DNA of 64,000 bases from Patescibacteria group bacterium (GTDB lineage: Bacteria > Patescibacteriota > Doudnabacteria > UBA920), in assembly GCA_013387205.1 (NCBI GenBank), contig WARV01000019.1, forward strand, positions 3,642 through 67,641, given 5' to 3'. The translations under genes were made by a program, and so were the position numbers. Within the stretch, counting starts at the first letter, position 1. Each line of letters opens with the position of its first letter. Shown in pieces: positions 12,256 through 56,111 of this stretch. The notes under the pieces were generated by a model that did not search any database, was not told the origin of the DNA, and was given only the letters and a program-made list of their open reading frames with translations.

Positions 12256-13650
12256 ATGCCCTATCTTCTCGCTCTCACTCTTCTCCTCACCCCAGCCTAC
12301 GCTATTAGGTTAAGTCTTTTTGGCCTTCCAACCAACTTTTTTATGGTTTGGGTATTTTTGTTCTGGATAATATTCTTTGCTTACTTAATAGCAAAAAAAC
12401 GTGTGTTAATATTTTTAACGGCCGTTAAAAATATTGATAAAAAAGTTTTAATTTTAACATCTTTATTTTTACTGTCGGGATTAATTTCTTTGTCTGCCAA
12501 AGGAATTGCCCAGAAAAAAATCGGCCAGTTTATTGTCTTATTCTTGCAGCCGATAAGCATATTTTTAATTTCAATTTTCATCATCAAGCAGCAACCCAAG
12601 ACAAAATCCTTACTGCTTGCCACATGCTACTTGCTACTAGCCGCAAGCGGCCTGTATGCCATTTTCCAATATTTCACTCTTGTAGGACTGCCACCAGAAT
12701 GGTGGGGAAACAGCGTTGAGCCTAAGAGAGCAATAAGTTTTTTCAGCCACCCAAACTTTTATGCTCTTTTCACCGCACCTCTTTTGGCATTATTGATTCC
12801 GCATTTGTCCGGCGTCATTCTGAGCCGAAATGCATCCGCCAGTTCGACAAGCTCATGGCGCCCTGAGCAAAGTCGAATGGGCGACGGCGAAGAATCTCAA
12901 GCCAAGAAAGAGATCCTTTGCTCCGCTTCCCCCTCAGCTAAAACTACCGGGGACAAGCAGGATGACGCCAAATTTAAATACTTATTTCTGATTAGCTGGT
13001 CGGTCGGCGCTATCGGCCTGCTCTTGTCCATGTCGCGCGCCGGATGGCTTGGCCTGGCCGCTGCAATTGCGGTTTATGCTTTTGTGGCAGCAGATAAAGA
13101 AATCAGGAAGATAGTAATAGGAGCGGCCGCAATTCTTTTTATAATAGTCGCTATTGTCCCTAACTTGCGCTACAGAGTAACTTTGCCATTTTACGGGGAA
13201 AAGTCTACAGTCTCGCGCCTGTCTTTATGGAATACAGGAATTAAAGGAATAAAAGAATCGCCAATAACCGGCCTTGGCTTAACCGGCTTTGCCAACAACT
13301 GGCAAAAATTAAATACCGATCCAAACTTAGATACCCATAACTTTCCGCATAATATCTTTTTGGATCTTTGGGTGGAAACAGGAATCTTAGGACTTATAAG
13401 CCTTATAGGACTAATAGGACTAATAATCTACCGCGGCCTGCGGCATTCTCTCCTCCTGTCCCAGGAGGAGTACCCAGCTTCGCTGGGGGAGGTGGTAGAA
13501 GTTAAGGATAAAGGATTAAAAATTAAAGATTTACCTCTTGCCGTCTCCCTTTTCCTCATCGCCCTAATTTTCCAAGGCCTCATCGACAACCCGTACTTCA
13601 AAAATGACCTGGCGATGGTGTTTTGGATAATACTTTCTTTGGCAGTTTAA
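12256..13650 (+). CDS. O-antigen ligase (Wzy_C) family membrane protein carrying an in-frame repeat insertion
   Basis: Multiple TM helices. SRAGWLG signature. Residues ~186-238 are encoded by an RPE-like element. Confidence 0.65.
   Translation: MPYLLALTLLLTPAYAIRLSLFGLPTNFFMVWVFLFWIIFFAYLIAKKRVLIFLTAVKNIDKKVLILTSLFLLSGLISLSAKGIAQKKIGQFIVLFLQPISIFLISIFIIKQQPKTKSLLLATCYLLLAASGLYAIFQYFTLVGLPPEWWGNSVEPKRAISFFSHPNFYALFTAPLLALLIPHLSGVILSRNASASSTSSWRPEQSRMGDGEESQAKKEILCSASPSAKTTGDKQDDAKFKYLFLISWSVGAIGLLLSMSRAGWLGLAAAIAVYAFVAADKEIRKIVIGAAAILFIIVAIVPNLRYRVTLPFYGEKSTVSRLSLWNTGIKGIKESPITGLGLTGFANNWQKLNTDPNLDTHNFPHNIFLDLWVETGILGLISLIGLIGLIIYRGLRHSLLLSQEEYPASLGEVVEVKDKGLKIKDLPLAVSLFLIALIFQGLIDNPYFKNDLAMVFWIILSLAV
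12409..12434. repeat. 26-bp perfect palindrome ATATTTTTAACGG/CCGTTAAAAATAT inside the O-antigen ligase CDS
   Basis: Exact symmetry. Encodes IFLTAVKNI on both strands. Confidence 0.9.
12811..12969 (+). mobile_element. RPE-like MITE copy (159 bp, 53 codons) inserted in-frame in the O-antigen ligase gene
   Basis: Terminal inverted repeats GGCGTCATTCTGAGC / GCAGGATGACGCC. Near-identical to the GGCGTCATCCTGAACCCGAATGCATC segment at 51245. Confidence 0.6.
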
Positions 13651-13656
13651 AGACTA

Positions 13657-13682
13657 CACTTTTTCACGGCCGTGAAAAAGTG
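13657..13682. repeat. 26-bp perfect palindrome CACTTTTTCACGG/CCGTGAAAAAGTG (ACGGCCGT family; terminator position)
   Basis: Lies between the O-antigen ligase stop and the SDR gene start. Confidence 0.85.
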
Positions 13683-13744
13683 CGGTATTATCTGCAAAAT
13701 AAATAGGACGGTAGATTTTTAAATAACATTAATCAACTCTTAAA

Positions 13745-14473
13745 ATGCTACGAAATAAAACAATTTTCATTACTGGATCATCTAGGGGGATTGGAGCGGC
13801 AACTGCTAGGCTTGCAAAACAATACGGCGCTAAAGTAATCTTGCATGGGAAGGATAAAAGTGAAAGTTTGGAAAAGTTGGCACAAGAATTAGGAACTAAA
13901 TATTATCCATGTGACGTAATTGACTCGAAAATGGTGCAACAGACGGTTAATAATGCTATTGGAGATTACGGAAAAATCGATGCCTTAATCAACTGTGCTG
14001 GCATTGCACTACGGACAACCATTATGGATAATTCCGACGAACCCTGGCTAGATATGTTTAAAATCAACATATTAGGAACTTTGCATTTTTGCCAAGCAGT
14101 TTTCCCCCACATGCAAAAAGCGGGAAGTGGCCGTATAGTAAACACATCTTCCATTCGAGGCTTTACTGCAACCGCTGGCAAACCTGCTTATTCCGTATCA
14201 AAAGCAGGAATCGTCAACCTTACCGCAACCATGGCTAAAGAGTTTGCTCCATTCATTACGGTTAACGCTGTCGCCCCAGGTTTTACCGAAACGGATATGA
14301 GCAAAACCTGGGATGAACCAACACGAAAATTAGCAGAAAGTTGCTTGCTTAAAAGGACGGCGGATCCTAAAGAAATAGCCGAAGCATTGCTGTTTTTAGC
14401 TAGCGATAGAGCGAGTTTTATCACAGGACAAACATTTTTAGTTGACGGTGGTTATAGTATTTCAAACAAATAA
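13745..14473 (+). CDS. SDR-family oxidoreductase (3-oxoacyl-ACP reductase-like)
   Basis: TGSSRGIG cofactor motif. YxxxK active site (YSVSK). Confidence 0.8.
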   Translation: MLRNKTIFITGSSRGIGAATARLAKQYGAKVILHGKDKSESLEKLAQELGTKYYPCDVIDSKMVQQTVNNAIGDYGKIDALINCAGIALRTTIMDNSDEPWLDMFKINILGTLHFCQAVFPHMQKAGSGRIVNTSSIRGFTATAGKPAYSVSKAGIVNLTATMAKEFAPFITVNAVAPGFTETDMSKTWDEPTRKLAESCLLKRTADPKEIAEALLFLASDRASFITGQTFLVDGGYSISNK

Positions 14474-14486
14474 ATAACAGACTATA

Positions 14487-14512
14487 AAACCGCCCGTTTT
14501 GGGCGGTTTTTT
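14487..14512. terminator. Bidirectional terminator AAAACCGCCCGTTTTGGGCGGTTTTTT
   Basis: Lies between the convergent SDR and jag genes. Confidence 0.75.
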
Positions 14513-14523
14513 ATTTATAGATA

Positions 14524-14994
14524 CTATTTCTTGAGTTTTATTATTATTTTGCGGTGGGGTTCTTGGCCGATGCTTTCGGTGTAAACTTCCGGGCTGTGTT
14601 CCTGTAAATAAGCATGGACAAACCTGCGTTCGTAATTGGGCATTGGCTCTAAAGCCACCGGGCGGCCAGTGCGTTTTATCTGTTCCACCGCGCCTTTGGC
14701 GGTTTCTTTCAAAAACCATTCCCTTTTCCTTTTATAATCATCCACGTCAACAGTAAACCAGAAAGGTTCTGCAGATTGCAATTTCTTAGCAGCTAGGGCT
14801 TGGATTAATATCTGCAAAGAATGCAAAGTCGCGCCCTGCCGGCCAATAAGCAAATAAGAATCCTGGGAACTGATGTTAAAAATTAACCCCTTTGTAATAC
14901 TCTCCTCAAACTCCACACTGGCTTTAATCCCGCACTTATCCAGCAGCTCAATAATAATATTTTTTACTGTCTCGATTTTTTCGTAATCAGTCAT
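14524..14994 (-). CDS. jag: Jag/SpoIIIJ-associated RNA-binding protein (KH + R3H domains)
   Basis: IGRQGATL KH motif. R3H-like RRFVHAYLQEH. Downstream of yidC. Confidence 0.75.
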   Translation of the reverse strand: MTDYEKIETVKNIIIELLDKCGIKASVEFEESITKGLIFNISSQDSYLLIGRQGATLHSLQILIQALAAKKLQSAEPFWFTVDVDDYKRKREWFLKETAKGAVEQIKRTGRPVALEPMPNYERRFVHAYLQEHSPEVYTESIGQEPHRKIIIKLKK

Positions 14995-15058
14995 AACGTT
15001 AGAATTAAGAATTATGAATTAAGAATTATGAATTTTCATAATTCCTGATTCCTGCTTC

Positions 15059-15763
15059 CTAATTAGCAGGAGCGGACTGTTTGCGCATAATGTAATATTG
15101 CTGGGCGATGGCAAAAAGGGTGGTTACTATCCAGTATAAAGGAAGACCGGCCGGAAGCCTTATGGCTACAATTATACTAACGACTGGCAAAACATAAGTA
15201 GTTTGCAGGCTCATGGCTTTAGCCGTAGCATCCTGCTGCTGGCTGGCTTTTGGCATCATCATCTTTGACTGCCAGAATTGCGCCAAACCGGCCAAAACCC
15301 CTAAAACAATGCTAGGCTTGGCAAGGTTGATAAGGTTTAAAAAGTAAGGATCAATTGATCCGGGGTTATGGACAAAATTATACAAACCATTTAAGTTTCC
15401 TGCCAAAGCTTTATTAAAAACCTGGTAAAGAGCGATTAAAATCGGCAACTGGATCAGCAAAGGCAAGCAAGAAGACAGGGGATTAATTTTATATTCCCGG
15501 TATAAATCCATCATGGCCCTGGCCTGGCCTTCTTTGTCGTCTTTGTATTTTTCCCTGAGTTCGTTAAGCTTCGGCTGCAAATCGTTCATAGCCTTTTGGC
15601 TTTTAAGCGACTTGTGAAAGCTTGGAGCTAAAATGAGCCTGATAAGAATAGTTAGCAAAATAATCACAACTCCAATGTCATGCCCAGGAAGAATGTTGTA
15701 AAACATCACCAGCAAGTTCAGTAGAGGCCTGTAAATAATATCGTAATAAATAAAATGAAGCAT
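15059..15763 (-). CDS. yidC: Membrane protein insertase YidC (short form)
   Basis: YidC/Oxa1 core TM helices. Synteny rpmH-rnpA-yidD-yidC-jag. Confidence 0.85.
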   Translation of the reverse strand: MLHFIYYDIIYRPLLNLLVMFYNILPGHDIGVVIILLTILIRLILAPSFHKSLKSQKAMNDLQPKLNELREKYKDDKEGQARAMMDLYREYKINPLSSCLPLLIQLPILIALYQVFNKALAGNLNGLYNFVHNPGSIDPYFLNLINLAKPSIVLGVLAGLAQFWQSKMMMPKASQQQDATAKAMSLQTTYVLPVVSIIVAIRLPAGLPLYWIVTTLFAIAQQYYIMRKQSAPAN

Positions 15764-15786
15764 TAATTAATATGTTAATTTTATAT

Positions 15787-16062
15787 TTACTTGTTAGGGA
15801 CCAAGTCCACTCGCGGCTGAGCCCAAGGATTACATCTTGCAATTCTCTTGCCAGCTAAAAGACCGCCTTTTATCACACCATGTTTTTCTATGGCTTGTTT
15901 GCCGTATTCACTGCAAGAAGGATAATACTGGCAATAACCGTATGGATACCTGGCTTTAAACCAGCCGTGGTCAGGGGAAAGGGTTGCCTGGTAAAAACGG
16001 ATCAATAAAATTATTGACCTTTTAGGCAAGTTAACAATTATTTTATAAAACTTATTATCCAT
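15787..16062 (-). CDS. yidD: Membrane protein insertion efficiency factor YidD
   Basis: Conserved CxxxPxCSxY motif (CQYYPSCSEY). Synteny. Confidence 0.8.
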   Translation of the reverse strand: MDNKFYKIIVNLPKRSIILLIRFYQATLSPDHGWFKARYPYGYCQYYPSCSEYGKQAIEKHGVIKGGLLAGKRIARCNPWAQPRVDLVPNK

Positions 16063-16080
16063 ACTGGTATTATAACATTT

Positions 16081-16419
16081 TTAGATGCTAAATAACCGTG
16101 TCTTTTGGCCTAATTCTTTAAATTTTTCAACCAATTCTTTGTTTGGAAGCTTAGCAGCCTGCGGTTTTACCACAACCGCGTAGTCCCCAGGATGAAAAAT
16201 GCCTAAATTAAGCCTAATTGTTTCCCTTAACACCCTTTTCATCCTGTTTCTCTCAACTGCTTTTTTGGACACCTTTGTTGACACTACTACTGTAAAACGG
16301 ACACCTTCCGGCTTTTTCAGGTATTTAACAGTGAAATAAGGGTTAAAAAAAGGCCGTCCCCGCATGAAGACCAATTCAACATCTTTGGTTTTAGCGAGAC
16401 GGTTAGTTTTTTTAAACAT
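16081..16419 (-). CDS. rnpA: Ribonuclease P protein component
   Basis: Basic protein with KKAVERNRMKR RNR motif. Downstream of rpmH. Confidence 0.85.
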   Translation of the reverse strand: MFKKTNRLAKTKDVELVFMRGRPFFNPYFTVKYLKKPEGVRFTVVVSTKVSKKAVERNRMKRVLRETIRLNLGIFHPGDYAVVVKPQAAKLPNKELVEKFKELGQKTRLFSI

Positions 16420-16462
16420 AAATGATAATGGCGGCTGCGCAATTAAGGCAGCCGCCGCCTTT

Positions 16463-16600
16463 TTACACTACTGTTAATCTCTTGCGGCCCTTAGCTCTCC
16501 TGCTGGCCAGAACTTTTCTACCGGTTCTGGTTTGCATCCGCTTTAAGAACCCATGGCGTCTTTTTCTTCTTTTCACTTTTGGCTGGTATGTTCTCTTCAT
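16463..16600 (-). CDS. rpmH: 50S ribosomal protein L34
   Basis: Manual minus-strand translation gives [45 protein letters not shown]. Absent from the ORF track, which only lists ORFs of 60 aa or more. Confidence 0.9.
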
Positions 16601-16605
16601 TATAA

Positions 16606-16693
16606 AATCCTAATGCCCCGAATCAGCATCCGAATGCCCCAAACAATTCCCTTTCGGGTCATTTGGGTAAGAATTCGGGTAATTCGGATTATA
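16606..16693 (-). repeat. CCGAAT-rich leader element copy B (ends 5 nt before the rpmH ATG)
   Basis: Reverse complement is GTATAATCCGAATTACCCGAAT...CCAAATGACCCGAAAGGGAA...TTTGGGGCATTCGGATGCTGATTCGGGGCATTAGGATT. Confidence 0.9.
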
Positions 16694-16699
16694 CTTTTT

Positions 16700-16911
16700 A
16701 ATTTCTTGGTATATTATAAAGAAAAATAGAGGATTGGTCAATATTTCCCCTGACTTTTCTTTAATTTTCGCTAAGCACACTTTTTCCACAGCATATTCAC
16801 AGTATGTTAAAATTACCTTATAAACAAGCCTTAATTTTACTTGTTTACATGTTGATAACTCCCTGTTAAAATAAAAAAACACTGACAAACACAGATAAAA
16901 ACTAATTTTTT
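16700..16911. other. Candidate oriC part 1: DnaA-box-like motifs upstream of dnaA (TTTTCCACA at 16782; TTATCAACA reverse complement at 16852) in an AT-rich spacer
   Basis: 8/9 matches to TTATCCACA, read directly. Position between rpmH and dnaA. Confidence 0.4.
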
Positions 16912-19618: not shown

Positions 19619-19627
19619 ACAATAATA

Positions 19628-19719
19628 TAATCCGAATTATCCGAATATTGCAATCCAAATGCCCCGAATAGGGAACATTTGGGGTATTCGGGTAGTAATT
19701 CGGAGTATTAGGATTATAC
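19628..19719 (+). repeat. CCGAAT-rich leader element copy C (ends 3 nt before the recF ATG)
   Basis: TAATCCGAATTATCCGAAT...CCAAATGCCCCGAATAGGGAACATTTGGGGTATTCGGG...ATTCGGAGTATTAGGATTATAC. Confidence 0.9.
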
Positions 19720-19722
19720 TTC

Positions 19723-20808
19723 ATGAAAATAAGAAACATCCAAATTAAAAACTTCCGCAATTATCCAAGCTTAAACATAAGCATTAATAATGACGTGGTG
19801 GTTTTAAGCGGGCCAAACGCGGTTGGAAAAACCAACCTACTTGAATCCGTATATTTCGCCTCGTTATTTAAATCGTTCAGGGACGACACGGAATTCATCT
19901 TTTTGAAGGGCTGCGACAGTCTGGAATTGAAAATGACCGTTGAAAAAGAAGATGAAGAACATTTGCTGGAAGTTTTCTTGGAAAAAAGGGATAAGGTTTA
20001 TGCAAATTTCCTGATTGACGGAGTTAAAAAGAAGCGTAAAGAAGCACAGGGGTTTATGAGTGTTGTTATTTTCGACCCGACTGACGTGGATATGTTCAGT
20101 AAATCCCCGGATTCCAGAAGAAAATATTTGAACATGGTTTTGTCCCAGAAAAACTTAAACTACCTGGACGCTTTGGCAAATTATAAAAAAGCGTTATTCC
20201 AAAAAAACAAACTCCTTGCTGACATTAGAGCAGGAAGGGTGCAGAACACCGGCCTGGAAGAATGGAACGAGCAGCTTGTATCTTTTGGCAGCCAGATAAT
20301 TTTAGAAAGAAAGAAATTCATTAATTACCTGAATAACAGTATTGCGGATGTTTATACCACGATTTCCGGGTTCCATAGGCCGGTAGAAGTGTCTTACGAG
20401 ACATTGCCGGGAGATATTTTGGAAGAAATCCAGGACAGTTTCAGGCAGAAACTTGAAGCCTTAAAGAGTAAAGAAGCGATTTTAGCCAATTGCCTTGTCG
20501 GACCCCATCGAGACGACTTTTTCCTTAAGAGCGAAGGCTTGTTCTTGTCTCCATTTTCTTCCAGGGGAGAACTAAGGAGCCAGGTGTTGGCTTTAAAAGT
20601 CCTGGAGCTTGAATACTTAAGCAGGGAAAACAACAAGCCGATTCTGCTGCTTGATGATGTTTTGTCCGAGTTGGATGAAACCAGAAGGACCTTTTTACTG
20701 AAATATTTGCAAGGGAAATTCCAGACGTTTATAACCACCACACATCCTTTGGAAATGCCGGCACAGCACATCACCTTGACGCCGGCAACCCAGGAAGAAG
20801 AAGCTTGA
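19723..20808 (+). CDS. recF: DNA replication and repair protein RecF
   Basis: Walker A GPNAVGKTN and ABC-type signature region. Synteny dnaA-dnaN-recF. Confidence 0.9.
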   Translation: MKIRNIQIKNFRNYPSLNISINNDVVVLSGPNAVGKTNLLESVYFASLFKSFRDDTEFIFLKGCDSLELKMTVEKEDEEHLLEVFLEKRDKVYANFLIDGVKKKRKEAQGFMSVVIFDPTDVDMFSKSPDSRRKYLNMVLSQKNLNYLDALANYKKALFQKNKLLADIRAGRVQNTGLEEWNEQLVSFGSQIILERKKFINYLNNSIADVYTTISGFHRPVEVSYETLPGDILEEIQDSFRQKLEALKSKEAILANCLVGPHRDDFFLKSEGLFLSPFSSRGELRSQVLALKVLELEYLSRENNKPILLLDDVLSELDETRRTFLLKYLQGKFQTFITTTHPLEMPAQHITLTPATQEEEA

Positions 20809-20943
20809 TATCTACTAAATACTAAAAGGTACTAAATGTACTAAATATCATCAAATAGACTTAATTGATATCAGTACTGGTATATTACTTTAGTACCTTT
20901 CGTATATTTTAGTATTTAGTAGAAGAATTAGTAGAAAAACAAA

Positions 20944-21246: not shown

Positions 21247-21251
21247 ACAAA

Positions 21252-21285
21252 ACTACGATAAATGACGGCCGTCATTTATCGTAGT
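21252..21285. repeat. 34-bp perfect palindrome ACTACGATAAATGACGG/CCGTCATTTATCGTAGT (ACGGCCGT family)
   Basis: Shares a 22-bp core ATAAATGACGGCCGTCATTTAT with the palindrome at 42464. Confidence 0.9.
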
Positions 21286-21293
21286 ATATTAAT

Positions 21294-22080: not shown

Positions 22081-22530
22081 TTATCTTGCTTTTTCCAGCT
22101 TGGCTTCTTTAACTTTTTTTACTAATTCGCTTGAACTTTGGATCTTGCCACTTTTTCCTATATTGTAAACCATTTCAATTCCAAGCTTTTCACAAACCAT
22201 TACTTCCGGCACCGGGTCGCCGTCCGGTTTTCTGTCACCGCCGTTGGCAAAGACATCAGGTTTTAAAATTTCAAGCTCAGCGCTGACCGACATATCCTTA
22301 GGCTCTTCCGCGTGGTTGGTAATTAAAACCTCGTCAACATACTTAATAGCTTCAATTACCGCCTTGCGCTCCTTTTCATTCATGAACGCAAAGCCTTTTT
22401 TCTTTTTCAACCAGTTATCGTTATTTAAAATGACTACCAAGCGATCCCCTAACTCTTTAGCTTCCTTCATCATCTCGATATGGCCGATGTGTACCGGATC
22501 AAAGCCTCCGGAAATTGCGATTATTTTCAT
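22081..22530 (-). CDS. Cytidylyltransferase-like nucleotidyltransferase (HIGH-motif family)
   Basis: MKIIAISGGFDPVHIGHIEMM N-terminus. The track ORF extends to 22653, but the true start is at 22530, directly after the repeat element. Confidence 0.7.
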   Translation of the reverse strand: MKIIAISGGFDPVHIGHIEMMKEAKELGDRLVVILNNDNWLKKKKGFAFMNEKERKAVIEAIKYVDEVLITNHAEEPKDMSVSAELEILKPDVFANGGDRKPDGDPVPEVMVCEKLGIEMVYNIGKSGKIQSSSELVKKVKEAKLEKAR

Positions 22531-22534
22531 ATAT

Positions 22535-22612
22535 GTAATCCTAATGCCCCGAATTAGCATCCAATGTCCCAATAATATCCCTAAATTATTCGGGTCATTT
22601 GGATAATATTCA
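22535..22612 (-). repeat. CCGAAT-rich leader element copy D (partly degenerate at the distal end; ends 4 nt before the ATG at 22530)
   Basis: Proximal end ATTCGGGGCATTAGGATTACATAT-ATG on the minus strand. Confidence 0.8.
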
Positions 22613-22671
22613 GGGAAGATAACTGTTAGGTACAGCTTTTGACGTATCAGCAAACAAAAAATTGCTGTTTT

Positions 22672-24584: not shown

Positions 24585-24591
24585 ATAAATA

Positions 24592-24686
24592 TAATCCTAA
24601 TGACCCGAATAATATCCGAATTATCCAAATGTGCCAAAAGGGAGTTTTCGGGTCATTAGGATGCCGATTCGGGGTATTCGGATTAC
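24592..24686 (-). repeat. CCGAAT-rich leader element copy E (ends 7 nt before the ruvB ATG)
   Basis: Reverse complement GTAATCCGAATACCCCGAAT...CCTAATGACCCGAAAA...ATTCGGGTCATTAGGATTAT. Confidence 0.9.
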
Positions 24687-27807: not shown

Positions 27808-29460
27808 ATGTCCGTTCATAATTTTTTGCCAGGAACTGAAAAAGACCTTCAAAGGTCTTTGGATGACTTAAGCCGCAGGATGCAGGAAGACGAAGCTAAG
27901 GCTAAGGCTTCGGGTTTAGGCTTGCCTTACGTGGACTTGCATAATTTTCCCATAGATTTGAATGTGCTCGGGTTGTTTACCAAAGAAGAAGCGGAAAGCA
28001 GCGGAGCCGTGCCGTTTTTCAAGGATTTGACCGATTTAAGGATTGGCGCGACCGATCCGGAGAATCCGCTGCTTTTGGAGAAAATCGACGAGTTTTCCAA
28101 AAAACACAAAATCAGTTTGTACTTGATTTCCAAACCAAGCCTTGCCCAAGTCATGAAGTTTTACAGCAAAGTCCTGCGGCCTAAGCCTGGGCACGACGAG
28201 ACTGTTAGGGTAGAAACACAGGAAGAATATGGAAAAATACTCAAGCTGCTTGGGTCCGAAGAAGAGCAGGCAAAAAAAAGCGCCTCTGAACTTTTGGGGA
28301 TAATTTTCGGGGCCAGTATTTTTTTCAGCTCTTCCGATATCCATTTGGAGCCGGAAGATCATTTCGTCAAACTGCGCTACCGCATTGACGGCGTGTTACA
28401 GGACATGCTGCATTTTTCCAAAAGCCTGCAGCGCTCCATTGTTACCCGCATTAAAATAATTTCCAAGCTCAAGCTGAACGTGGAAAATGTTCCGCAAGAC
28501 GGCCGCATTACGTTTTATTATTTGGGAAAGCCCATAGATGTCCGCGTTTCAATTTTGCCGAGCGCTTACGGGGAGGAAATTGTCATGCGACTTTTGGGAA
28601 CCGGCGCGGTTAGCTTGAAACTTTCGGACTTAGGCCTGAGCCAGGATGACCAGGAAATCATAAACAGGCAGCTGGCCAAACCCAATGGCATGATAGTCAC
28701 CACCGGCCCGACCGGCAGCGGCAAGACCACGACTTTGTACGCGTTTATAAACGAACTCAACGAGCCTGGCGTAAAAATTATCACTTTGGAAGATCCGGTG
28801 GAATACAAGCTGGAAGGAATTGTGCAGACGCCAATCGACCATGGCGTGGATTTTGATTTTGCCAAAGGCCTGCGCGCAATTTTAAGGCAGGACCCTGACA
28901 TTGTCATGGTCGGCGAAATCCGCGACCAGGAAACTGCGGAAACTGCCATGCAGGCGGCATTGACCGGCCACTTGGTTTTGTCGACTTTGCACACCAATGA
29001 TGCGGCTGGCGCCATCCCGCGCTTGCTTAACATGGGAGTTAAGCCGTTTGTCATCGGTCCGGCGCTTTCGGCAGTTATTGCCCAAAGGCTGGTACGGAAA
29101 ATCTGCCAGAACTGCAAAACCAAAGCCGCGCTATCGCCGGCTGTAATGGAAAAAATCACTTTCCTGCTAAAGCAATTGCCAAAAAATAAAAAAGAAAAAT
29201 TGCCGAAAGCTTTGCAGTTTTACCATTCAACCGGCTGTGAGCAGTGTCATCATTTGGGATATAAAGGCAGGGTTGGCATTTACGAAGTTTTGGAAATTAC
29301 GCAAAAAGTACAGGATTTGATTATGAAAGATTCTGTCATGAGCGCGTACAAACAGGCTGGTGTTGGGCAAGGCATGATAACCATGGTCCAGGACGGGTTA
29401 CTTAAAGCCTTGGACGGAATTACGGATGTGGAAGAAGTGTTCAGGGTGGCAGGGGAGTGA
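27808..29460 (+). CDS. Type II secretion / type IV pilus assembly ATPase (GspE/PilB family)
   Basis: N-terminal GSPII_E_N-like domains, Walker A GPTGSGKTTTLYA, a Walker B region and a tetracysteine motif (CQNC...CEQC). Confidence 0.9.
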   Translation: MSVHNFLPGTEKDLQRSLDDLSRRMQEDEAKAKASGLGLPYVDLHNFPIDLNVLGLFTKEEAESSGAVPFFKDLTDLRIGATDPENPLLLEKIDEFSKKHKISLYLISKPSLAQVMKFYSKVLRPKPGHDETVRVETQEEYGKILKLLGSEEEQAKKSASELLGIIFGASIFFSSSDIHLEPEDHFVKLRYRIDGVLQDMLHFSKSLQRSIVTRIKIISKLKLNVENVPQDGRITFYYLGKPIDVRVSILPSAYGEEIVMRLLGTGAVSLKLSDLGLSQDDQEIINRQLAKPNGMIVTTGPTGSGKTTTLYAFINELNEPGVKIITLEDPVEYKLEGIVQTPIDHGVDFDFAKGLRAILRQDPDIVMVGEIRDQETAETAMQAALTGHLVLSTLHTNDAAGAIPRLLNMGVKPFVIGPALSAVIAQRLVRKICQNCKTKAALSPAVMEKITFLLKQLPKNKKEKLPKALQFYHSTGCEQCHHLGYKGRVGIYEVLEITQKVQDLIMKDSVMSAYKQAGVGQGMITMVQDGLLKALDGITDVEEVFRVAGE

Positions 29461-29499
29461 TTTCTACTAAATACTAAAAGATACGAAAAATACTAAATT

Positions 29500-29527
29500 A
29501 AAATACCGCTTGTTCAAGCGGTATTTT
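29500..29527 (+). terminator. Hairpin terminator AAAATACCGCTTG-TT-CAAGCGGTATTTT
   Basis: 13-bp stem followed by a T-run after the pilB-like gene. Confidence 0.75.
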
Positions 29528-40974: not shown

Positions 40975-41016
40975 GAATTAAGAATTTAGAATTATGAATT
41001 AAGAATTTGGCAGTAA

Positions 41017-41058
41017 CAATTCCCGGATTTCGAGCGATCGCTCGAAATCCGGGAATTG
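41017..41058. repeat. 42-bp perfect palindrome CAATTCCCGGATTTCGAGCGA/TCGCTCGAAATCCGGGAATTG
   Basis: Exact reverse-complement symmetry, centre CGATCG. Downstream of the giant surface-protein gene. Confidence 0.9.
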
Positions 41059-42463: not shown

Positions 42464-42505
42464 TTACTCCTCTATAAATGACGGCCGTCATTTATAGAGG
42501 AGTAA
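42464..42505. repeat. 42-bp perfect palindrome TTACTCCTCTATAAATGACGG/CCGTCATTTATAGAGGAGTAA (ACGGCCGT family)
   Basis: Exact symmetry. 22-bp core identical to the palindrome at 21252. Confidence 0.9.
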
Positions 42506-43048: not shown

Positions 43049-43154
43049 AAAAAAACAAGAGAGAGTAATTAGGAAGCTCTTAAGAATAATCTCTCCATTA
43101 ATTTGTGAGACTCTTCGTTGTTCGACTCCTTAAGAATGACGCCTGGATATATAA

Positions 43155-43305
43155 GATTGCTTCGGAAACAAGCCAAAGCCCTTGTTTCCTCGCAATGACA
43201 TCCTTTGTTTCCTGTCATCGCGAGGAGCCCGCAGGGCGACGTGGCGATCCTTAACCAAGGAAAGATTGCTTCGTCGTCAGATGCATTCCTCCTCGCAATG
43301 ACAAG
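43155..43305. mobile_element. RPE-like MITE, ~1.5 tandem copies (intergenic)
   Basis: TGTCATCGCGAGGAGC...AGATTGCTTCG...CCTCGCAATGACA with an extra upstream right-end fragment AGATTGCTTCGG...CCTCGCAATGACA. Confidence 0.6.
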
Positions 43306-43358
43306 ATGTGATCGATATTGGCCAAAGTTACTCTTTGACCATAAAAATAACGGCTAAA

Positions 43359-43395
43359 TCCTAGGAAATTCAGGATTTAGCCGTTAAAAATATAT
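43359..43395. repeat. Hairpin AACGGCTAAATCCT-AGGAAATTC-AGGATTTAGCCGTT (AACGGCTAAAWCCTA family), downstream of uvrB
   Basis: 14-bp perfect stem flanked by A and T runs. Confidence 0.8.
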
Positions 43396-46809: not shown

Positions 46810-46936
46810 AATTAAATTGATCTAATTATTTTAATTTCTAATTGACCTAAATAAACCCCAATCCCTAAATCCCAATTAGACATTAGATATTATTTAAAAT
46901 AATTAGATCAATTAGGTTAATTAGGAATTTGCAAAC

Positions 46937-47974: not shown

Positions 47975-47977
47975 TAA

Positions 47978-48012
47978 AGAGACCCTTTGCTTAGAGCAAA
48001 GGGTCTCTTTGG
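47978..48012 (+). terminator. Hairpin terminator AAAGAGACCCTTTGC-TTAGA-GCAAAGGGTCTCTTT
   Basis: 15-bp perfect stem. Confidence 0.8.
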
Positions 48013-48028
48013 TTATAATGGAGATTTT

Positions 48029-48065
48029 AACGGCTAAATCCTAGATATTTTAGGATTTAGCCGTT
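48029..48065. repeat. Hairpin AACGGCTAAATCCTA-GATATTT-TAGGATTTAGCCGTT (AACGGCTAAAWCCTA family)
   Basis: 15-bp perfect stem between the convergent FemAB and Clp genes. Confidence 0.8.
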
Positions 48066-48079
48066 TAATTTATAGTTTA

Positions 48080-50740: not shown

Positions 50741-50753
50741 TTTAAAAATAAAG

Positions 50754-51083: not shown

Positions 51084-51177
51084 TGTCTAGATGTTTTTGT
51101 TTCTTGTAGTGCTTTGATAATTTTATTATACAATATTTTTCTAAGATTTGCTATTTTTGTAGAATGGTCAATGTACA

Positions 51178-51385
51178 ATGTCATTGCGAACGAGTGCCTC
51201 AAAGAGGCCTCTTTGGGGCATCCGAGCGCGGCAATCTTAACGCCTTTAGGCGTCATCCTGAACCCGAATGCATCTGAGGGTGAAGGATCTTTAAATAGAT
51301 TGCTTCCCCCTTCGCCAAGGCTTCCGAACTTCGCTAAAGCTACGTCGGACAAGTCGGAGGACAGGTCGGATGCACTCGCAATGAC
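51178..51385. mobile_element. RPE-like MITE, largest copy (~208 bp) with TIRs GTCATTGCGAACGAGTGC / GCACTCGCAATGAC
   Basis: Contains the AGATTGCTTCCCCCTTCGCCAAGGCTTC block shared with the copy at 55724 and the GGCGTCATCCTGAACCCGAATGCATC block shared with 12811. Confidence 0.7.
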
Positions 51386-51453
51386 GATACTTGTGGTCAA
51401 AGGCGCTCTTTAACCAGGACTGTTTTCAACAGCTTTTATCCTGTATAATAGGT

Positions 51454-52809
51454 ATGATGAATTCGATTAAAATTTTAATTAAAAAATATTTAATTCCGGA
51501 AAGCCTGCTTAAAGTACTGCGCCCCTTTTACCATGGCGCTATAGCTTTGGCCGGGCATTGGTGTTTTGGCAAACCGAGCGAAAAAATGGTCGTGATTGGC
51601 GTAACCGGCACTAACGGCAAATCAACCACGGTTAATTTGATCGCGCGGATTTTGCAGGAAGCCGGAAATAAAGTTGGCTACACTTCCACGGTTACGGTTA
51701 ATTTCGGGAGCTTGGAGAGTTTGAATAAGTTAAAAATGACCATGCCCAGTGGCTGGCTTTTGCATAAATGGATGAAGCAGATGGTAAATGCAGGGTGCAA
51801 GTATGCGGTTTTGGAAGTGTCCAGCGAAGGCTTGGCGCAGAACCGTCATTTGGGGATAAATTTTGACGTTGCGGTTTTTACCAACCTTACGCCTGAGCAT
51901 TTGGATTCGCATGGCGGGTTTGAGCCGTACAAATTGGCCAAAGCAAGGCTTTTTAAAGCAATTTCCAAGAACCAAGAAACAAGAGCCAAACAAATAATAA
52001 ATTCCAAATTACAAAAAACAATTATTGTTAATGCAGACGACAAGTCATCGGAATATTACAGAAACCTCAAGGCTGATAAATATTTTTCTTATGGCGTAAA
52101 GGATCGGTCCACGGACTTTGCCGCGAAAGATATCAAATACTCTCCAAGCGGGATAGGCTATACGCTGAACGCTTTACGCTATACGCTCAAACTCAAAGGG
52201 CAATTTGACGTTTATAATTCCTTGGCTGCAATTGCCACGGCGCAATCGCAAAACATTTCTTTGGAAGTTTGCAAAGCCGCTTTGGAAAAGGTGGAAGTGG
52301 TGCCTGGCCGCGTGGAAGTAATTAAACAAGAGCCTTTTACAGTTGTGGTAGATTACGCGTATGAGCCTGAGGAAATGAGGCAGCTTTACGAAACAATCTC
52401 CCGCTGGCCGCATAACAAGATTATCCAGGTAATGGGCGCAACCGGAGGCGGCAGGGATAAGAACAGGATTTTTACATTAGGGGAAATGGCCGGCAAATTC
52501 GCATCCGCGGTTTTTATTACCACCGATGACCCTTACGATGACGATCCGAAAATTTTAAGCCAGCCCATGGTGGAAGGCGCAGAAAAAAGCGGCAAGCAAT
52601 TGGAACAAAATTTGTTTTGCGAATACGGCCGCCGCGCTGCCATCGGCCGCGCTGTTTGCATGGCGCAAACCGGGGATTTGGTTTTAATTACCGGCAAAGG
52701 TGCGGACCAAAAAATGGCTTTGGCCAATGGGCAATATATTGATTGGGATGATAGAGTAGTAGTGAAAGAAGAATTAGCTAAGTTGCCATCCTTGATTCAT
52801 AATTCTTAA
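51454..52809 (+). CDS. Mur ligase family protein (MurE-like UDP-MurNAc-tripeptide synthetase)
   Basis: P-loop GVTGTNGKSTT and the Mur ligase middle/C-terminal domain pattern (DYAYEPEE). Start chosen at ATG 51454, 5 nt after the TGtTATAAT at 51442-51449. Confidence 0.75.
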   Translation: MMNSIKILIKKYLIPESLLKVLRPFYHGAIALAGHWCFGKPSEKMVVIGVTGTNGKSTTVNLIARILQEAGNKVGYTSTVTVNFGSLESLNKLKMTMPSGWLLHKWMKQMVNAGCKYAVLEVSSEGLAQNRHLGINFDVAVFTNLTPEHLDSHGGFEPYKLAKARLFKAISKNQETRAKQIINSKLQKTIIVNADDKSSEYYRNLKADKYFSYGVKDRSTDFAAKDIKYSPSGIGYTLNALRYTLKLKGQFDVYNSLAAIATAQSQNISLEVCKAALEKVEVVPGRVEVIKQEPFTVVVDYAYEPEEMRQLYETISRWPHNKIIQVMGATGGGRDKNRIFTLGEMAGKFASAVFITTDDPYDDDPKILSQPMVEGAEKSGKQLEQNLFCEYGRRAAIGRAVCMAQTGDLVLITGKGADQKMALANGQYIDWDDRVVVKEELAKLPSLIHNS

Positions 52810-52812
52810 TTC

Positions 52813-53157
52813 ATGATTTTATTCATCGATACATCTGATTTTAATAAAGTGACTTTTGCTCTGGTTGGCAAAAAAGTTTTAAAGAAGTCTTACCGTATCA
52901 ATCCGCGCGAGAGCCACGAGACTTTAAAAAAACTGGACGAGTTTTTAAAGTCGGTTAAATGTCAAAGGTCAGATGTCAAAGGTGTTTATGTTTGCAGCGG
53001 GCCGGGCAGTTATACGGGCGTCAGGATTGGCGTGACTGCGGCGCAGGCTTTGGGCTTTGCTTGGCAAATACCGGTTACAGCTTTGGAAAAAGAAAAAGTT
53101 CCAGTCAGCCTTTTGGATCTAGCTAAGGTTAAAGGAAAGAGGTTGTATAGGCCGTAA
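52813..53157 (+). CDS. tsaB: Truncated TsaB (YeaZ)-like protein, N-terminal half only (114 aa)
   Basis: MILFIDTSDFNKVTFAL...GPGSYTGVRIGVTAAQALGF matches the TsaB N-terminal core. Contains the 23-nt GTCAAAGGTCAGATGTCAAAGGT motif at 52961-52983. Confidence 0.55.
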   Translation: MILFIDTSDFNKVTFALVGKKVLKKSYRINPRESHETLKKLDEFLKSVKCQRSDVKGVYVCSGPGSYTGVRIGVTAAQALGFAWQIPVTALEKEKVPVSLLDLAKVKGKRLYRP

Positions 53158-53319
53158 AAGTTAGAGTTAAGAAATAAGTCGCCTCGTCGGCGATCCGCCG
53201 CTTGTCTGCCTAGAGGTGGGGAGAGGCGGGGGTAAGATTGTAGGGGCGGCTTTGAAAGCCACCCTTTAATTATCTGATAAGGCTTATAGGTCATATGGGG
53301 TTTATTGGACTTGTAGGAC

Positions 53320-53348
53320 GAATAACTCAACCTATGGTTGAGTTATTC
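53320..53348. repeat. Hairpin GAATAACTCAACC-TATG-GGTTGAGTTATTC (variant of the GAATGGCTCAACC family), followed by a second small hairpin and T7
   Basis: 12-bp perfect stem. Confidence 0.7.
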
Positions 53349-53403
53349 AAAACTGCTTAAATAAGCGGTATTTTTTTGTCCATTTTTCACATGTTATAAT
53401 AAA

Positions 53404-53997
53404 ATGGCTATGACAAAAAACAAAAAAATATATTTCATCACATTTATTATCATATTTATAGCTGCCGCTGCCGGGTTTGGGTTGTATCTGAAAAATAATA
53501 AAAAAGTTATTCAGGATCCGGAAAGCGATATTAGCGGAATGTCCGCAAGCCCTGAACAAGCAAAAGAAAACAACAGGATAATCAACGAGCCGTTGAAGGA
53601 AGCGGAGGTTTACAGGAATCTCGATCCGCTGTTTTCTTTTTCTTATCCTAAAGGCTTGAAAGTCGGGGAATTTGAAGAAGGGGAGAGCGGCCAGACAATC
53701 TTAATCCAAAAACCGGGAACGAAAATCGGCATCCAAATTTATTACAGCCCGTTTGATGAAGATGTCACTTTAACTGCCGACCGCATCAAAAAAGATTTGC
53801 CGGATACTAAGATGGATAGTGTGGAAACCTGGAACGTGGGAGCCCTGCAGGCTGTTTCTTTTGTCAGCGAAAATTCTTCTTTCGGCAAAACCCGCGAGGT
53901 TTGGTTTGTTTACGACAAAAACCTTTATCAGATTACGACCTATTTCGAACTCAGCGATTTTTTGAAACAAATTTTGGCAACTTGGAAGTTTGATTAA
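53404..53997 (+). CDS. Membrane-anchored hypothetical protein (197 aa)
   Basis: N-terminal TM helix. No recognisable domain. Confidence 0.45.
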   Translation: MAMTKNKKIYFITFIIIFIAAAAGFGLYLKNNKKVIQDPESDISGMSASPEQAKENNRIINEPLKEAEVYRNLDPLFSFSYPKGLKVGEFEEGESGQTILIQKPGTKIGIQIYYSPFDEDVTLTADRIKKDLPDTKMDSVETWNVGALQAVSFVSENSSFGKTREVWFVYDKNLYQITTYFELSDFLKQILATWKFD

Positions 53998-54017
53998 AAC
54001 AACGGATTCACACTAAT

Positions 54018-54046
54018 AAAGCCCCAGGCCGAAGGCCTGGGGCTTT
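54018..54046. terminator. Bidirectional terminator AAAGCCCCAGGCC-GAA-GGCCTGGGGCTTT
   Basis: 13-bp GC-rich stem between convergent genes. Confidence 0.8.
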
Positions 54047-54093
54047 TAAAATCCGTGTTTATCAGTTCTTAATCCGTGTCTATCCGTTTGTTT

Positions 54094-54837
54094 TTACTCT
54101 TTTAACTTAAACACTTTAAAAGTAATTATCAGTATAGCAATGAGCCAGAGGCCTAAAAATAAAATATCAATTCCAATAGCGTGAAAATTGAACGGGAACA
54201 AATAAGCTTGGCGCAAACCGTCAGCCAAATAAGTAATTGGCAAGACTTTGGCGATTTTTTGTATTGGCTCGGGCAAAACGCTTAAAGGATAAAAAACATT
54301 GCTTAAAAAGGTTAAGGGCAAGCCGACCGCCGAAGTAATCGGCGCGGCTGCGTCGTAGCTTTTGGCATAGTTGGAAATGAGCAGGCCTATAGTCAAAAAA
54401 ATCGCTCCGCCGAGCAGTACCAGCGCAAAGGTGGAAATAATATTGCCGGAGAATTGCGCTTTAAAAACAAATATTCCAAGCAGGGTTAAAATTACGGCTT
54501 GGATGACTACAATCACCAGTCTGGCCAAAACCAAACTTGATACCAATTGCCATTGCTTAAGCGGCGTGGCCAGCATCCTTTTGGTAATGCCGCGCGCTTT
54601 TAAGTCAACCATCCAGTAGGCCAGCGAATAAATGCCGCCCTGCATAATGGTTAAGGCTATAATGCCAGGCAGGACAAAGCTGGAATAAATGGTTGTGGAA
54701 TTGGTTATTTTGCCTACCGGAATAATAGACAGGGCAATGTAAATCATGGCCGGCATCAGCACGGTCCAATAAAACCCTTCCTTTTCCCGGTAGAACATTT
54801 TAAAATTTGCGAGGAACAATTGATAGAAACTGTTCAT
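54094..54837 (-). CDS. ABC-2 type transporter permease
   Basis: Six hydrophobic helices. Downstream of the ABC ATPase gene. Confidence 0.75.
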   Translation of the reverse strand: MNSFYQLFLANFKMFYREKEGFYWTVLMPAMIYIALSIIPVGKITNSTTIYSSFVLPGIIALTIMQGGIYSLAYWMVDLKARGITKRMLATPLKQWQLVSSLVLARLVIVVIQAVILTLLGIFVFKAQFSGNIISTFALVLLGGAIFLTIGLLISNYAKSYDAAAPITSAVGLPLTFLSNVFYPLSVLPEPIQKIAKVLPITYLADGLRQAYLFPFNFHAIGIDILFLGLWLIAILIITFKVFKLKE

Positions 54838-55085
54838 AATTTATTTAAATATTATTTAAAAAACATGGTTGTAAATTGACCTAATTAACCTAATTAACCT
54901 AATTTCCGCCAGCTGGCGGACTAAACAAACCCCAATTCCCAATTCCTAATACTAACTCCCTCTGTCTCCCTCTTTAGAAAAGAGGGAGAACATGCTAAGA
55001 AAGGCTATAGCCTTGCTTAGCTGGTTCCTTCTCTTTTTCTAAAGAGAAGGGCAGGATGAGTTAATAATAATTAGAATAATTTTTT

Positions 55086-56111
55086 CTACTCTTCTTCAAA
55101 CTCATGCCCCGTTAAGTCCAAATATACGTCTTCGAGCGTTGCGGTTTTGACCATAAAGCCGTAAAAGACAATATTGTTTTGTTTAAGCAGGCTAATTACC
55201 GCGCTGACTTTATCTAAATTGGTAATTTCTAAAATCACCTTGGGATAGCTGGCGTGGATTTTTTTTATTTCCGGCAAAGTTTTAAAGAGTTCCTGGTTTA
55301 TCTGGCTTTCCGTAAAAAAGGAAATCTGCGTAGTTTCAGACAAGCGGTCAATTAATTTTTTCGGTTCATCGATTTCCAAAATTTTTCCCGAATCCATTAT
55401 GGCAACGCGATTGCACAAAAATTCCGCCTCTTCCATGTAGTGGGTGGTTAAAATAATGGTTATGCCCTGCTTGTTGATGTTTTTTACTAATTGCCAAAGG
55501 TTCCTGCGGGCGGAAGGGTCAAGGCCGGTAGTCGGTTCGTCCAAAAATAAAATGTCGGGATTATGGACCAAAGAGGTGGCTATGGTAAAGCGCTGTTTTT
55601 GCCCGCCGGAAAGCTTGCTGACCAATTCATGCTCTTTGTCTTCCAGGTTGACGAGTTTAAGGAGGGCTTTTCTTCTGTCATCGCGAGGGAGCGCATCCGA
55701 CCGTGGCGATCTGTTTATAGATTGCTTCCCCCTTCGCCAAGGCTTCGGAGGACAGGTCGGCTGCACTCGCAATGACATCGGGTAAAGTGATGCGAATAAA
55801 TCCAGCAGTTCTCCCAGAGTCAAGTGATGCAAATATTCGCTCGATTGCAGCTGAATGCCAATGCGCTCTTTGACCTTGTCGGCATTTTCTAGATTATCAA
55901 ACCCCAAAACATTGATTGTGCCCGAGGTTTGTGCCCGGAGGCCTTCAATGATTTCCAAAGTCGTGGTTTTACCAGCCCCGTTGGGCCCGAGTATTCCAAA
56001 AATCTCGCCTTTTTGCACGGAAAAGCTAACCCCATTAACCGCTTCAAAGGCGTTTTTCTTACCCTGGTTATAAGTTTTCTTTAAGTCTTTGACTTCAATA
56101 ACATTTTGCAT
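55086..56111 (-). CDS. ABC transporter ATP-binding protein carrying a 36-aa in-frame insertion derived from an RPE-like element
   Basis: Walker A GPNGAGKTT, signature LSGGQKQR, Walker B ILFLDEPT. The Pro/Arg-rich insert LRVQPTCPPKPWRRGKQSINRSPRSDALPRDDRRKA lies between the Q-loop and the signature motif. Confidence 0.85.
   Translation of the reverse strand: MQNVIEVKDLKKTYNQGKKNAFEAVNGVSFSVQKGEIFGILGPNGAGKTTTLEIIEGLRAQTSGTINVLGFDNLENADKVKERIGIQLQSSEYLHHLTLGELLDLFASLYPMSLRVQPTCPPKPWRRGKQSINRSPRSDALPRDDRRKALLKLVNLEDKEHELVSKLSGGQKQRFTIATSLVHNPDILFLDEPTTGLDPSARRNLWQLVKNINKQGITIILTTHYMEEAEFLCNRVAIMDSGKILEIDEPKKLIDRLSETTQISFFTESQINQELFKTLPEIKKIHASYPKVILEITNLDKVSAVISLLKQNNIVFYGFMVKTATLEDVYLDLTGHEFEEE
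55677..55777. mobile_element. RPE-like MITE copy inserted in-frame in the ABC ATPase gene
   Basis: TIRs TGTCATCGCGAGGGAGCGCATCCGACC / GGTCGGCTGCACTCGCAATGACA. Internal AGATTGCTTCCCCCTTCGCCAAGGCTTCGGAGGACAGGTCGG matches the copy at 51296. Confidence 0.7.

Follow-up and report, generated by a model that had tools for sequence, protein, structure and literature searches.

A probable family of tagged palindromic repeats with in-frame copies in two genes of a Patescibacteria contig

A 64,000-nt stretch of contig WARV01000019.1 from a Patescibacteria group bacterium (hereafter the window) carries short palindromic repeats at four loci, two between genes and two inside genes, which encode an O-antigen-ligase-like membrane protein and the ATPase of an ABC-2-type transporter. 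The nearest named homologues of both proteins belong to Candidatus Doudnabacteria and other Patescibacteria, and the gene content of the window includes rnpA-yidC-jag, dnaA-dnaN-recF, polA, uvrB, ruvABC, rpoB, and rpoC. An initial annotation, made from the sequence letters, described the repeats as a miniature inverted-repeat transposable element (MITE) family similar to Rickettsia palindromic elements (RPEs). Our results indicate that they very probably constitute a well-defined family of tagged hairpins, akin to RPEs and to repetitive extragenic palindromic (REP) sequences, with translated in-frame copies. The two host genes and the elements (A to D, by locus) are listed below, with strand where one was assigned.

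12095-12110 (+): putative solitary fragment TCATTCTGAGCGACCG, with an 11-nt exact match to element A (E = 2.3)
12256-13650 (+): O-antigen-ligase-like membrane protein (PF04932), 464 aa, first host gene
12811-12969 (+): element A, two CGTC-tagged units forming a dimer with termini GGCGTCATTCTGA and its inverted copy; 159 nt, 53 codons, residues G186-A238 (GVILSRNAS...KQDDA)
12813-12898: left unit of A, stem ATTCT/AGAAT, tail CTC
12837-12883: palindrome CGCCAGTTCGACAAGCTC...GAGCAAAGTCGAATGGGCG nested in the loop of the left unit, from a fold of 12809-12895
12910-12967: right unit of A, stem ATCCT/AGGAT
~13444-13536 (+): second ligase insert, comprising a pair of small GC hairpins (CTCCTCCTGTCCCAGGAGGAG, CCCAGCTTCGCTGGG) and one AT-rich repeat (VKDKGLKIKDL)
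43131-43143 (-): CTGA-type terminal fragment GGCGTCATTCTTA, one mismatch, no closing stem found
43153-43200 (-): element B1, a single intergenic unit with tag TGTC, stem ATTGC...GCAAT, and tail CTT; fold z = -3.1
43213-43303: element B2, a full intergenic heterodimer with stems ATCGC and ATTGC; hairpin of -22.3 kcal/mol, z = -4.0
51179-51386: element C, an intergenic composite directly upstream of a Mur-ligase-like open reading frame (ORF)
51179-51238, 51251-51291, and 51296-51386: left unit, inner CGTC unit, and right unit of C, the last with two nested modules
55086-56111 (-): ABC-2-type transporter ATPase (ABC_tran), 341 aa (insert-free orthologues, 304-315 aa), second host gene
55676-55777 (-): element D, an in-frame heterodimer encoding M112-D145 (MSLRVQPTCPPKPWRRGKQSINRSPRSDALPRDD)
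55676-55713 and 55718-55777: ATCGC unit of D, and ATTGC unit of D with a 29-nt nested module

The existence of a repeat family with inverted termini was borne out by tag scans, shuffles, and shared sequence blocks. The exact sequence GTCATYGCGA occurred seven times, in inverted pairs throughout (43190-43303, 51180-51385, and 55677-55776), and GGCGTCATYCTGA was located at 12811, 12957 (-), 43131 (-), and 51249 (six matches against 1.5 expected, with no shuffle reaching six). All ten window matches to a broader tag pattern, YGTCATY[GC]Y[GC][AC], fell inside the four annotated loci, and each of the ten termini was a CGTC or TGTC tag. Across the window and six orthologous loci (177 kb), the tag pattern matched 32 times, where 4.1 matches were expected and 100 shuffles gave no more than 12. 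Loci C and D have 30 nt at 100% identity and 32 nt at 97% in common, totaling 62 nt at ~98% with the nested 29-nt module included, 26 nt at 85% link locus A to C, and a weaker 40-nt module (repeat family D10) is common to A, C, and D at 63-70%. Locus B is tied to the others by 12-14-nt termini and unit architecture only. Copies of an element within one genome were near-identical.

Copies from the window and from relatives follow a common unit plan: an unpaired YGTC tag, a 5-bp closing stem, a conserved loop, and a CYN tail. The stem reads ATNNN...N'N'N'AT, in which A-T and T-A come first and the next three pairs covary (types ATTGC/GCAAT, ATTCT/AGAAT, ATCCC/GGGAT, ATCGC/GCGAT, and ATCCT/AGGAT). 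The loop opens with GA(G), includes the conserved sequence GAGTGCATCCGA, and has a core of TGCATCCGA or GCAGCCGA that stays constant while the stem pairs change. The shortest unit is 30 nt long (TGTCATTGCGAGTGCATCCGAAGCAATCTT, ~12 unpaired nt), and most are longer. Loop lengths differ too much for alignment, and stem covariation was gauged by how often the stem closes, with the complement of a different stem type as control. Of the 32 tagged termini in the window and the six orthologous loci, 28 have an exact 5-nt closing complement and, after it, a CYN tail; pairing is exact over these 5 bp and then gives way to G-A/A-G mismatches. Rfam contained no family matching any element, and gave no match in the window.

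The same unit is found well beyond this contig. Metagenomes were scanned with the pattern GTCATNNNGAG-N(0-10)-TGCATCCGA, leaving the closing arm unspecified, which returned at least 120 stretches, and 80 loci were analyzed. Among the matches listed, 44 of 88 close exactly within 25 nt (3% for a different-stem complement), and a Y precedes GTC in 75 of 88. Among the matches listed, closure within 45 nt depends on the Y of the tag (45 of 75 with a pyrimidine before GTC versus 1 of 13 without; Fisher p = 5e-4), and the tails among the matches listed were CTC (13), CCC (12), and CTT (11), with CCA seen once. In 2.9 million viral contigs (IMG/VR), the same pattern matched eight times, seven of them without a closing stem, which argues against carriage by phages and also serves as a specificity control. 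Conservation of the loop across unrelated assemblies implies a conserved recognition partner.

Elements typically consist of two such units with their tags pointing outward (80-210 nt, often with nested palindromes); folded whole, an element gives a long, imperfect hairpin (z = -2.4 to -4.0). Inverted dimers comprise A, B2, D, nine pairs in related loci at the pair-scan threshold, and one in relative L207, while C has three units. Single units with the full tag, stem, loop, and tail also stand alone (B1, and at 14868 in L081 and 7342 in L085). Further palindromes are nested in unit loops, such as the 47-nt palindrome in the left unit of A and the 29-nt module in the ATTGC unit of D. The former is missing from the otherwise similar unit at 51251-51291, and the peptide it encodes (RPEQSR..) is also present in orthologue P0122. 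The right unit of C corresponds to the ATTGC unit of D, 29-nt module included, plus a further insert of ~30 nt. Hence, although the initial annotation was right to see one family in the four loci, these are not simple copies of one element but mosaics with differing, covarying stems and nested modules. Locus C, previously listed as one 208-bp copy, is a composite of three units with nested modules; locus B, previously read as ~1.5 tandem copies, resolves into a full dimer (43213-43303), a single unit (43153-43200), and a terminal fragment (43131-43143), placed between two minus-strand ORFs and adjoining a terminator-like hairpin. A solitary terminal inverted repeat (TIR) fragment, annotated at 12089, actually lies at 12095-12110, lacks both a YGTC tag and a closing complement, and probably matches by chance or is what remains of a very degenerate copy. 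Separately, relatives L081 (12246-12327) and L085 (4785-4873) carry a CTGA-type dimer at the junction of TsaD-like and Mur-ligase genes, overlapping both called gene ends; element C of the window is situated at the opposite end of the Mur-ligase gene.

The term MITE, in its strict sense, does not survive these observations. A classic MITE would be a deletion derivative of an insertion sequence (IS), moved by a DDE transposase that binds its TIRs and generates target-site duplications. The elements resemble one in their size (80-210 nt), TIRs of 10-13 nt, multiple copies, and lack of any coding capacity of their own. However, inspection of 15 elements revealed no flanking direct repeats, the loop stays conserved across covarying stems, and the lone complete units fit REP-like hairpins rather than half-MITEs. 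Moreover, neither an IS with YGTC-type ends nor a transposase domain was found in the window (40 ORFs scanned for the latter). We therefore regard a MITE origin as very improbable.

The initial annotation also placed two copies in frame and stop-free inside the ligase-like and ATPase genes. Both ORFs are indeed open through the elements, and the corresponding segments are missing from many orthologues. Element D, interposed between the Q-loop and LSGGQ of an uninterrupted ATPase ORF, spans 34 residues (M112-D145) instead of the 36 given earlier. One of six frames is open in A and two of six in D, and the gene's own frame is among them both times. We considered whether the repeat is stop-free in all frames, as a general property, and rejected this: the open frames are no better than those of shuffled sequence, and hence reflect selection on the insertions that survived. 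The maintained frame also indicates that the inserts are translated, since removal from the mRNA would leave no reason to keep it. AlphaFold models place both inserts in predicted disordered loops. In the window ATPase (mean pLDDT 81), residues 113-141 are modeled as coil with pLDDT <50, lying in the helical subdomain between helices 99-108 and 143-153; in the ligase, insert A (residues 186-238) has pLDDT <50 for residues 194-230 and sits between two helices. As judged from these models, translation through the inserts yields disordered loops at the surface or between helices.

The ATPase orthologues (304-378 aa) share a gene order of rpoB, ATPase, permease, TsaD-like, and Mur ligase. The loop following LFASLY is kept at 8-9 residues, typically G/N-Q-K-A-D-K-x-x, in 58 of 109 orthologues, and is short in all outgroup ATPases from other phyla (distant ABC ATPases L001-L080, retrieved by generic Walker motifs). 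The inserts are therefore derived. About a quarter of the orthologues (26/109) carry inserts of at least 26 residues in this 8-residue loop, all in frame, and 25 more have shorter inserts there. At least five repeat types are represented:

Type 1: VSLR...PR(D/N)D, from GTCATTGCGAG units
Type 2: VSSR...GRDD, from GTCATCCCGA units
Type 3: VIP...RGND
Type 4: PLP/GEG, from CCCCTCC/GGGAGGG palindromes
Type 5: RKDAE...GRG

In syntenic DNA, the loop is empty in L083 (TAT AAT CAA AAA GCG GAT AAG), filled by a tagged dimer with differing stems in L082, L085, L086, L207, L208, and L209, and filled by untagged GC palindromes in L081 and L084. The latter are GC-rich palindromes of the form CCCCTCCC...GGGAGGGG (PLPNPPPPGEG, SPLRGEA; L081 10001-11032, L084 10001-11137), and members of this untagged family also lie at the second ligase hot spot of other orthologues (SPPPLARGGDGGEVER).

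These distributions leave little room for a further alternative, in which the hairpin is removed from the mRNA in an intron-like manner or the insert is a protein loop long present in the lineage and has nothing to do with mobile DNA. In its favor, the inserts are loops, and a long hairpin would bring the element ends together. Against this, the frame is kept even though so few frames of A and D are open, all 26 insert-bearing orthologues were found in frame, the same DNA units stand between genes and in unrelated genes, and the insert is missing from outgroups and most orthologues. This alternative appears extremely unlikely. Likewise, "lineage-specific insert", as the ATPase and ligase segments were first described, understates the pattern, in which the sites are recurrent hot spots holding different repeats in different lineages.

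Turnover at the ATPase loop appears to have been frequent. In a neighbor-joining tree built without the insert residues, filled taxa are scattered among empty ones, and parsimony requires ~20 changes (a rough count, from a tree without bootstrap). P0004 is filled and P0026 is empty, yet they are 90% identical, and unrelated inserts occupy the loop in P0008 and P0016 (94% identical) and in P0009 and P0019 (90%). The nearest relative of the window sequence (P0002/L209, core identity 79-80%) has a different element with its left junction in a different phase. The heterodimer of the window, ATTGC then ATCGC, is found in L208 as well. The 29-nt module is identical in D and in intergenic C and missing from the matching element of L208 at the same site, which shows copying or conversion between loci within the lineage. 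The 36-nt right unit is identical at 33 of 36 positions between the window and L208, and likewise between the window and L086, while host-gene third-codon positions in those pairs are 45-46% identical. The unit is thus either under constraint or a recent re-acquisition, and it does not follow neutral decay.

The ligase gene presents two hot spots of the same kind. Its orthologues are mostly 390-395 aa long (range 364-495). Hot spot 1, the site of element A, follows LLALLIP(D/H)L and has varied junctions among orthologues. Hot spot 2 follows YRGLR and in orthologues is empty or filled with VIP...GRDD elements, six of them showing the same junction, xx|VIP...(G/R)(D/N)D|(T/M/I)IKL. The window ligase itself contains a second insert (~13444-13536), overlooked in the initial annotation, in which residues 409-421 have pLDDT <50 and the AT-rich copy belongs to repeat family D1. 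Elsewhere in the window, the AT-rich repeat GAATTAAGAATTATGAATT lies between genes (15002-15035, 40975-41022, and 6091-6130), with the related in-frame ligase copy at 13499-13532 (KDKGLKIKDL), and similar KIKDLR or KNWKLKI peptides are present at hot spot 1 of many ligase orthologues.

In-frame copies are not confined to these two genes. A position counted as in-gene when a frame without stops extended for 60 codons or more on each side of the unit, and 13 of 59 testable metagenome units among the loci listed passed, versus 53% of random positions. The repeats are thus rarer in genes than random positions, yet far from excluded. The in-gene units among the loci listed fall in seven genes on contigs of G+C 0.40-0.45, whose hosts were named by eye from translations: gatB, acetyl-CoA synthetase, mnmA (two loci), recJ, atpG, and purL-like. 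A further copy lies in an unnamed ORF beside the atpG-like gene, and a dimer stands in frame in an ADH-like gene (again named by eye) of L086.

Selection on the inserts themselves could in principle account for their conservation, if intragenic copies had been co-opted, with the peptide serving as a linker or interaction loop or the mRNA hairpin regulating translation or stability. In favor of such co-option, the right units of the window and L086 differ at three sites, all of them synonymous third positions of SPRSDALPRDD (chance ~0.04), conservation of the unit exceeds that of neutral sites, and the terminal Asp falls where an ancestral Asp precedes a helix. However, close relatives with unrelated inserts, or none, illustrate that no particular peptide is required. 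The inserts are also predicted to be disordered, and the same units are conserved between genes too, which places the constraint on the DNA or RNA hairpin instead of the peptide. A possible RNA-level signal, sought in how G-U and C-A mismatches of heterodimers are oriented with respect to transcription, differed from locus to locus and was dropped. We consider co-option very unlikely as an explanation.

The repeats are best described as a non-autonomous, REP/RPE-like palindromic family whose architecture is conserved far beyond neutral expectation. A possible mechanism is that the folded tag and hairpin are recognized, and copied in trans, by an enzyme encoded outside the window. Stems that covary around an unchanging loop are what one would expect if both structure and sequence were read by the enzyme. 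HUH/Y1 enzymes recognize REP hairpins in this manner (PMC8266576, PMC6006769) and are the best analogy for such a trans-acting enzyme, although we propose it tentatively. In-gene insertions would survive only if they are in frame, free of stops, and in permissive loops. A loop already filled would then be the most permissive target available, and so become a landing pad in which further modules nest or replace earlier ones. We lean toward this landing-pad account for the recurrent hot spots.

Several points weigh against this account. No mobilizing enzyme was detected in the 40 window ORFs scanned with Pfam (no transposase, HUH, or Y1_Tnp domain in the 64 kb). Neither target-site duplications nor near-identical pairs of empty and filled alleles were found, and transposition as such is a putative route. 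Copies could also have been spread and homogenized by gene conversion, or by template switching from one hairpin to another, and transposition and hairpin-mediated conversion would look alike in the present sequences. Since gene callers report intact ORFs only, orthologues broken by out-of-frame copies would be missed. Finally, the left junction G|TGTCAT and right junction ATGACA|CA are identical in L082, L085, and L207, whose stems differ (ATTGC/ATTGC, ATCCC/ATCCC, and ATCCC/ATTCC, respectively), and a purely passive landing pad explains this poorly.

Those shared junctions favor the main rival, a more directed explanation in which an enzyme reads the YGTC tag together with the hairpin. It would insert elements at a preferred target, or exchange the interior of an element already in place for that of another copy, such that a fixed junction, and not tolerance alone, creates the hot spots. 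The unrelated inserts in the pairs P0008/P0016 and P0009/P0019 are also in line with it, as is the concentration of ~20 gains in a single 24-nt loop when just one other internal insert (P0052) was seen in 30 aligned ATPase orthologues. Additional support comes from the six orthologues with a common junction at ligase hot spot 2, and from the terminal GAC codon, which falls on an ancestral Asp or Asn in both genes. Overall, though, junctions are not nucleotide-precise: elements begin 1-4 residues from the conserved Tyr, the window, L208, and L209 differ in phase, and ligase hot spot 1 has several different junctions. Untagged repeats (CCCCTCC/GGGAGGG and RKDAE-type) in the same loop indicate tolerance and not tag-specific targeting, and the shared junctions may reflect common descent of three neighboring lineages. 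On balance, site-directed insertion or exchange seems unlikely to us, and the proposal that active targeting brings tagged hairpins to resident tag sites, or exchanges them there as integron-like translated cassettes, is more doubtful still. If it were true, a few codon-level sites in essential genes would turn over their content faster than the host protein diverges by 6%, and cassette exchange would generate fast-evolving disordered loops in housekeeping proteins.

Other repeats in the window form separate groups. Six palindromes centered on ACGGCCGT (e.g., TTTTAACGGCCGTTAAAA; 2893-2934, 3487-3528, 12404-12439, 13653-13686, 21250-21287, and 42464-42505) lie mostly at gene ends and are terminator-like, with one inside the ligase ORF encoding the conserved FLTAVKN. 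AT-rich inverted repeats of ~100 nt, composed of ATCCGAAT/ATTCGGAT-like heptamers (families D2-D6, I1-I4), have five intergenic copies (3827-3936, 16606-16707, 19624-19721, 22529-22617, and 24585-24685), one of them between rnpA and dnaA. A third intergenic family, TCTACTAAATACTAAAAGGTACTAAAT, is also inverted (D7, I5, I8, I11, I13; 4217-4302, 20806-20930, and 29458-29507). Three copies of a hairpin with a 17-bp stem, AACGGCTAAATCCTAG...CTAGGATTTAGCCGTT, followed by T runs (697-743, 43348-43394, and 48028-48074), resemble bidirectional terminators, and one of these is 45 nt from element B.

Among the neighboring genes, the sole tRNA of the window is a tRNA-Ile with anticodon TAT (UAU; 1048-1124, -), where the usual tRNA-Ile of comparison has a CAU anticodon modified by TilS. 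A trypsin-like protease (1199-2863, +) aligns with the 144-position Trypsin_2 profile over a stretched 212 residues (112-323), which suggests another internal insertion; the tag scan found no tagged unit in it. A PaaX central Cas2-like domain (PF20803) is present in a small protein (2943-3524, -) that recurs in relative L208 (4627-5157), near TsaD-like and Mur-ligase genes.

Protein-coding palindromes have been described as a peculiarity of Rickettsia. In-frame palindromes are now seen in a Patescibacteria genome, with similar inserts in environmental contigs of G+C 0.40-0.45. The refilling of the same loops by different repeats amounts to a natural experiment on insertion tolerance and on site choice by the repeats. 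Such repeats also inflate and diversify the proteins predicted from metagenomes, and explain the VIARS.., SLRG.., ..LAMT, and ..RDD peptides that are common in hypothetical proteins. Our literature search found no description of repeats of this kind in Patescibacteria, no paper linking MITEs with candidate phyla radiation (CPR) bacteria among the highest-ranked results, and no occurrence of the terminus sequence in a relevant context.

The closest published counterparts are the CGTC-tagged REPs, with families CGTC-1 to -4 that include RPE-6 and RPE-4 of Rickettsia conorii and dRS3 of Neisseria (Di Nocera, De Gregorio & Rocco 2013; PMC3733652). In these, the CGTC tag is often changed to TGTC (CCTC is also accepted), stems of 8-9 bp start with A-T, loops measure 4-5 nt, and tails are mostly CCA (PMC3733652). 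They are reported from five phyla, mainly Alphaproteobacteria, with no dedicated transposase found, and some copies are in genes, above all in R. conorii, whose RPE-4 and RPE-6 are their counterparts (PMC3733652). Their dimers are mainly head-to-head, and many are heterodimers (PMC3733652). The window units agree in their YGTC tag, A-T-led stem, short unpaired tail position, and in-gene copies, as well as in forming mostly inverted dimers, with tags outward here, among which heterodimers are frequent. Accordingly, the initial likening of the repeats to Rickettsia elements was apt. They differ in a stem exact over 5 bp versus 8-9 bp, in a loop of at least 12 nt with a GAGTGCATCCGA core and nested palindromes versus 4-5 nt, in a 3-nt tail of CTC, CCC, or CTT versus mostly CCA, and in their host, here Patescibacteria. 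Because the stem and loop lengths do not fit, the window units are placed outside CGTC-1 to -4, as a variant related to the CGTC superfamily by comparison with its published description. No later work on a CGTC enzyme was found in our literature search.

In-frame palindromic elements of the RPE-1 type were described in Rickettsia by Ogata et al. (2000, 2002), as summarized in a later source (PMC10969869), and R. felis has 728 RPEs, 85 of them in ORFs (PMC1166351). As in Rickettsia, palindromes of ~100-150 bp are here inserted in frame, and compatibly with folding, into unrelated housekeeping genes of a reduced genome. RPE insertions are described as single sites per gene, whereas here the same loop is occupied repeatedly by different repeat types across orthologues; the likeness to RPEs is one of behavior. 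In REPIN-RAYT systems, REP doublets are mobilized by REP-associated tyrosine transposases (RAYTs) (bioRxiv 10.1101/2021.07.10.451892, PMC8266576). REPINs similarly pair inverted, tagged hairpins into a larger hairpin, conserve hairpin and tag over the long term, and are non-autonomous. They are essentially extragenic, however, no RAYT gene was seen in the 40 ORFs scanned in the 64-kb window, and the YGTC tag, in place of GTAG (or GTGG), rules out REPIN/RAYT identity.

A precedent for recurrence at one coding site is recB of Xanthomonas campestris and X. oryzae, where different REPs lie at about the same position in the coding sequence (PMC3733652). The situation here is alike in that different repeats occupy about one coding site of orthologues. 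The Xanthomonas example, however, is a single case in two species, while here ~20 gains are inferred at one loop and three hot spots are found in two genes. Hence, the basic phenomenon is of a known kind, and the turnover of hot spots across orthologues is its new part.

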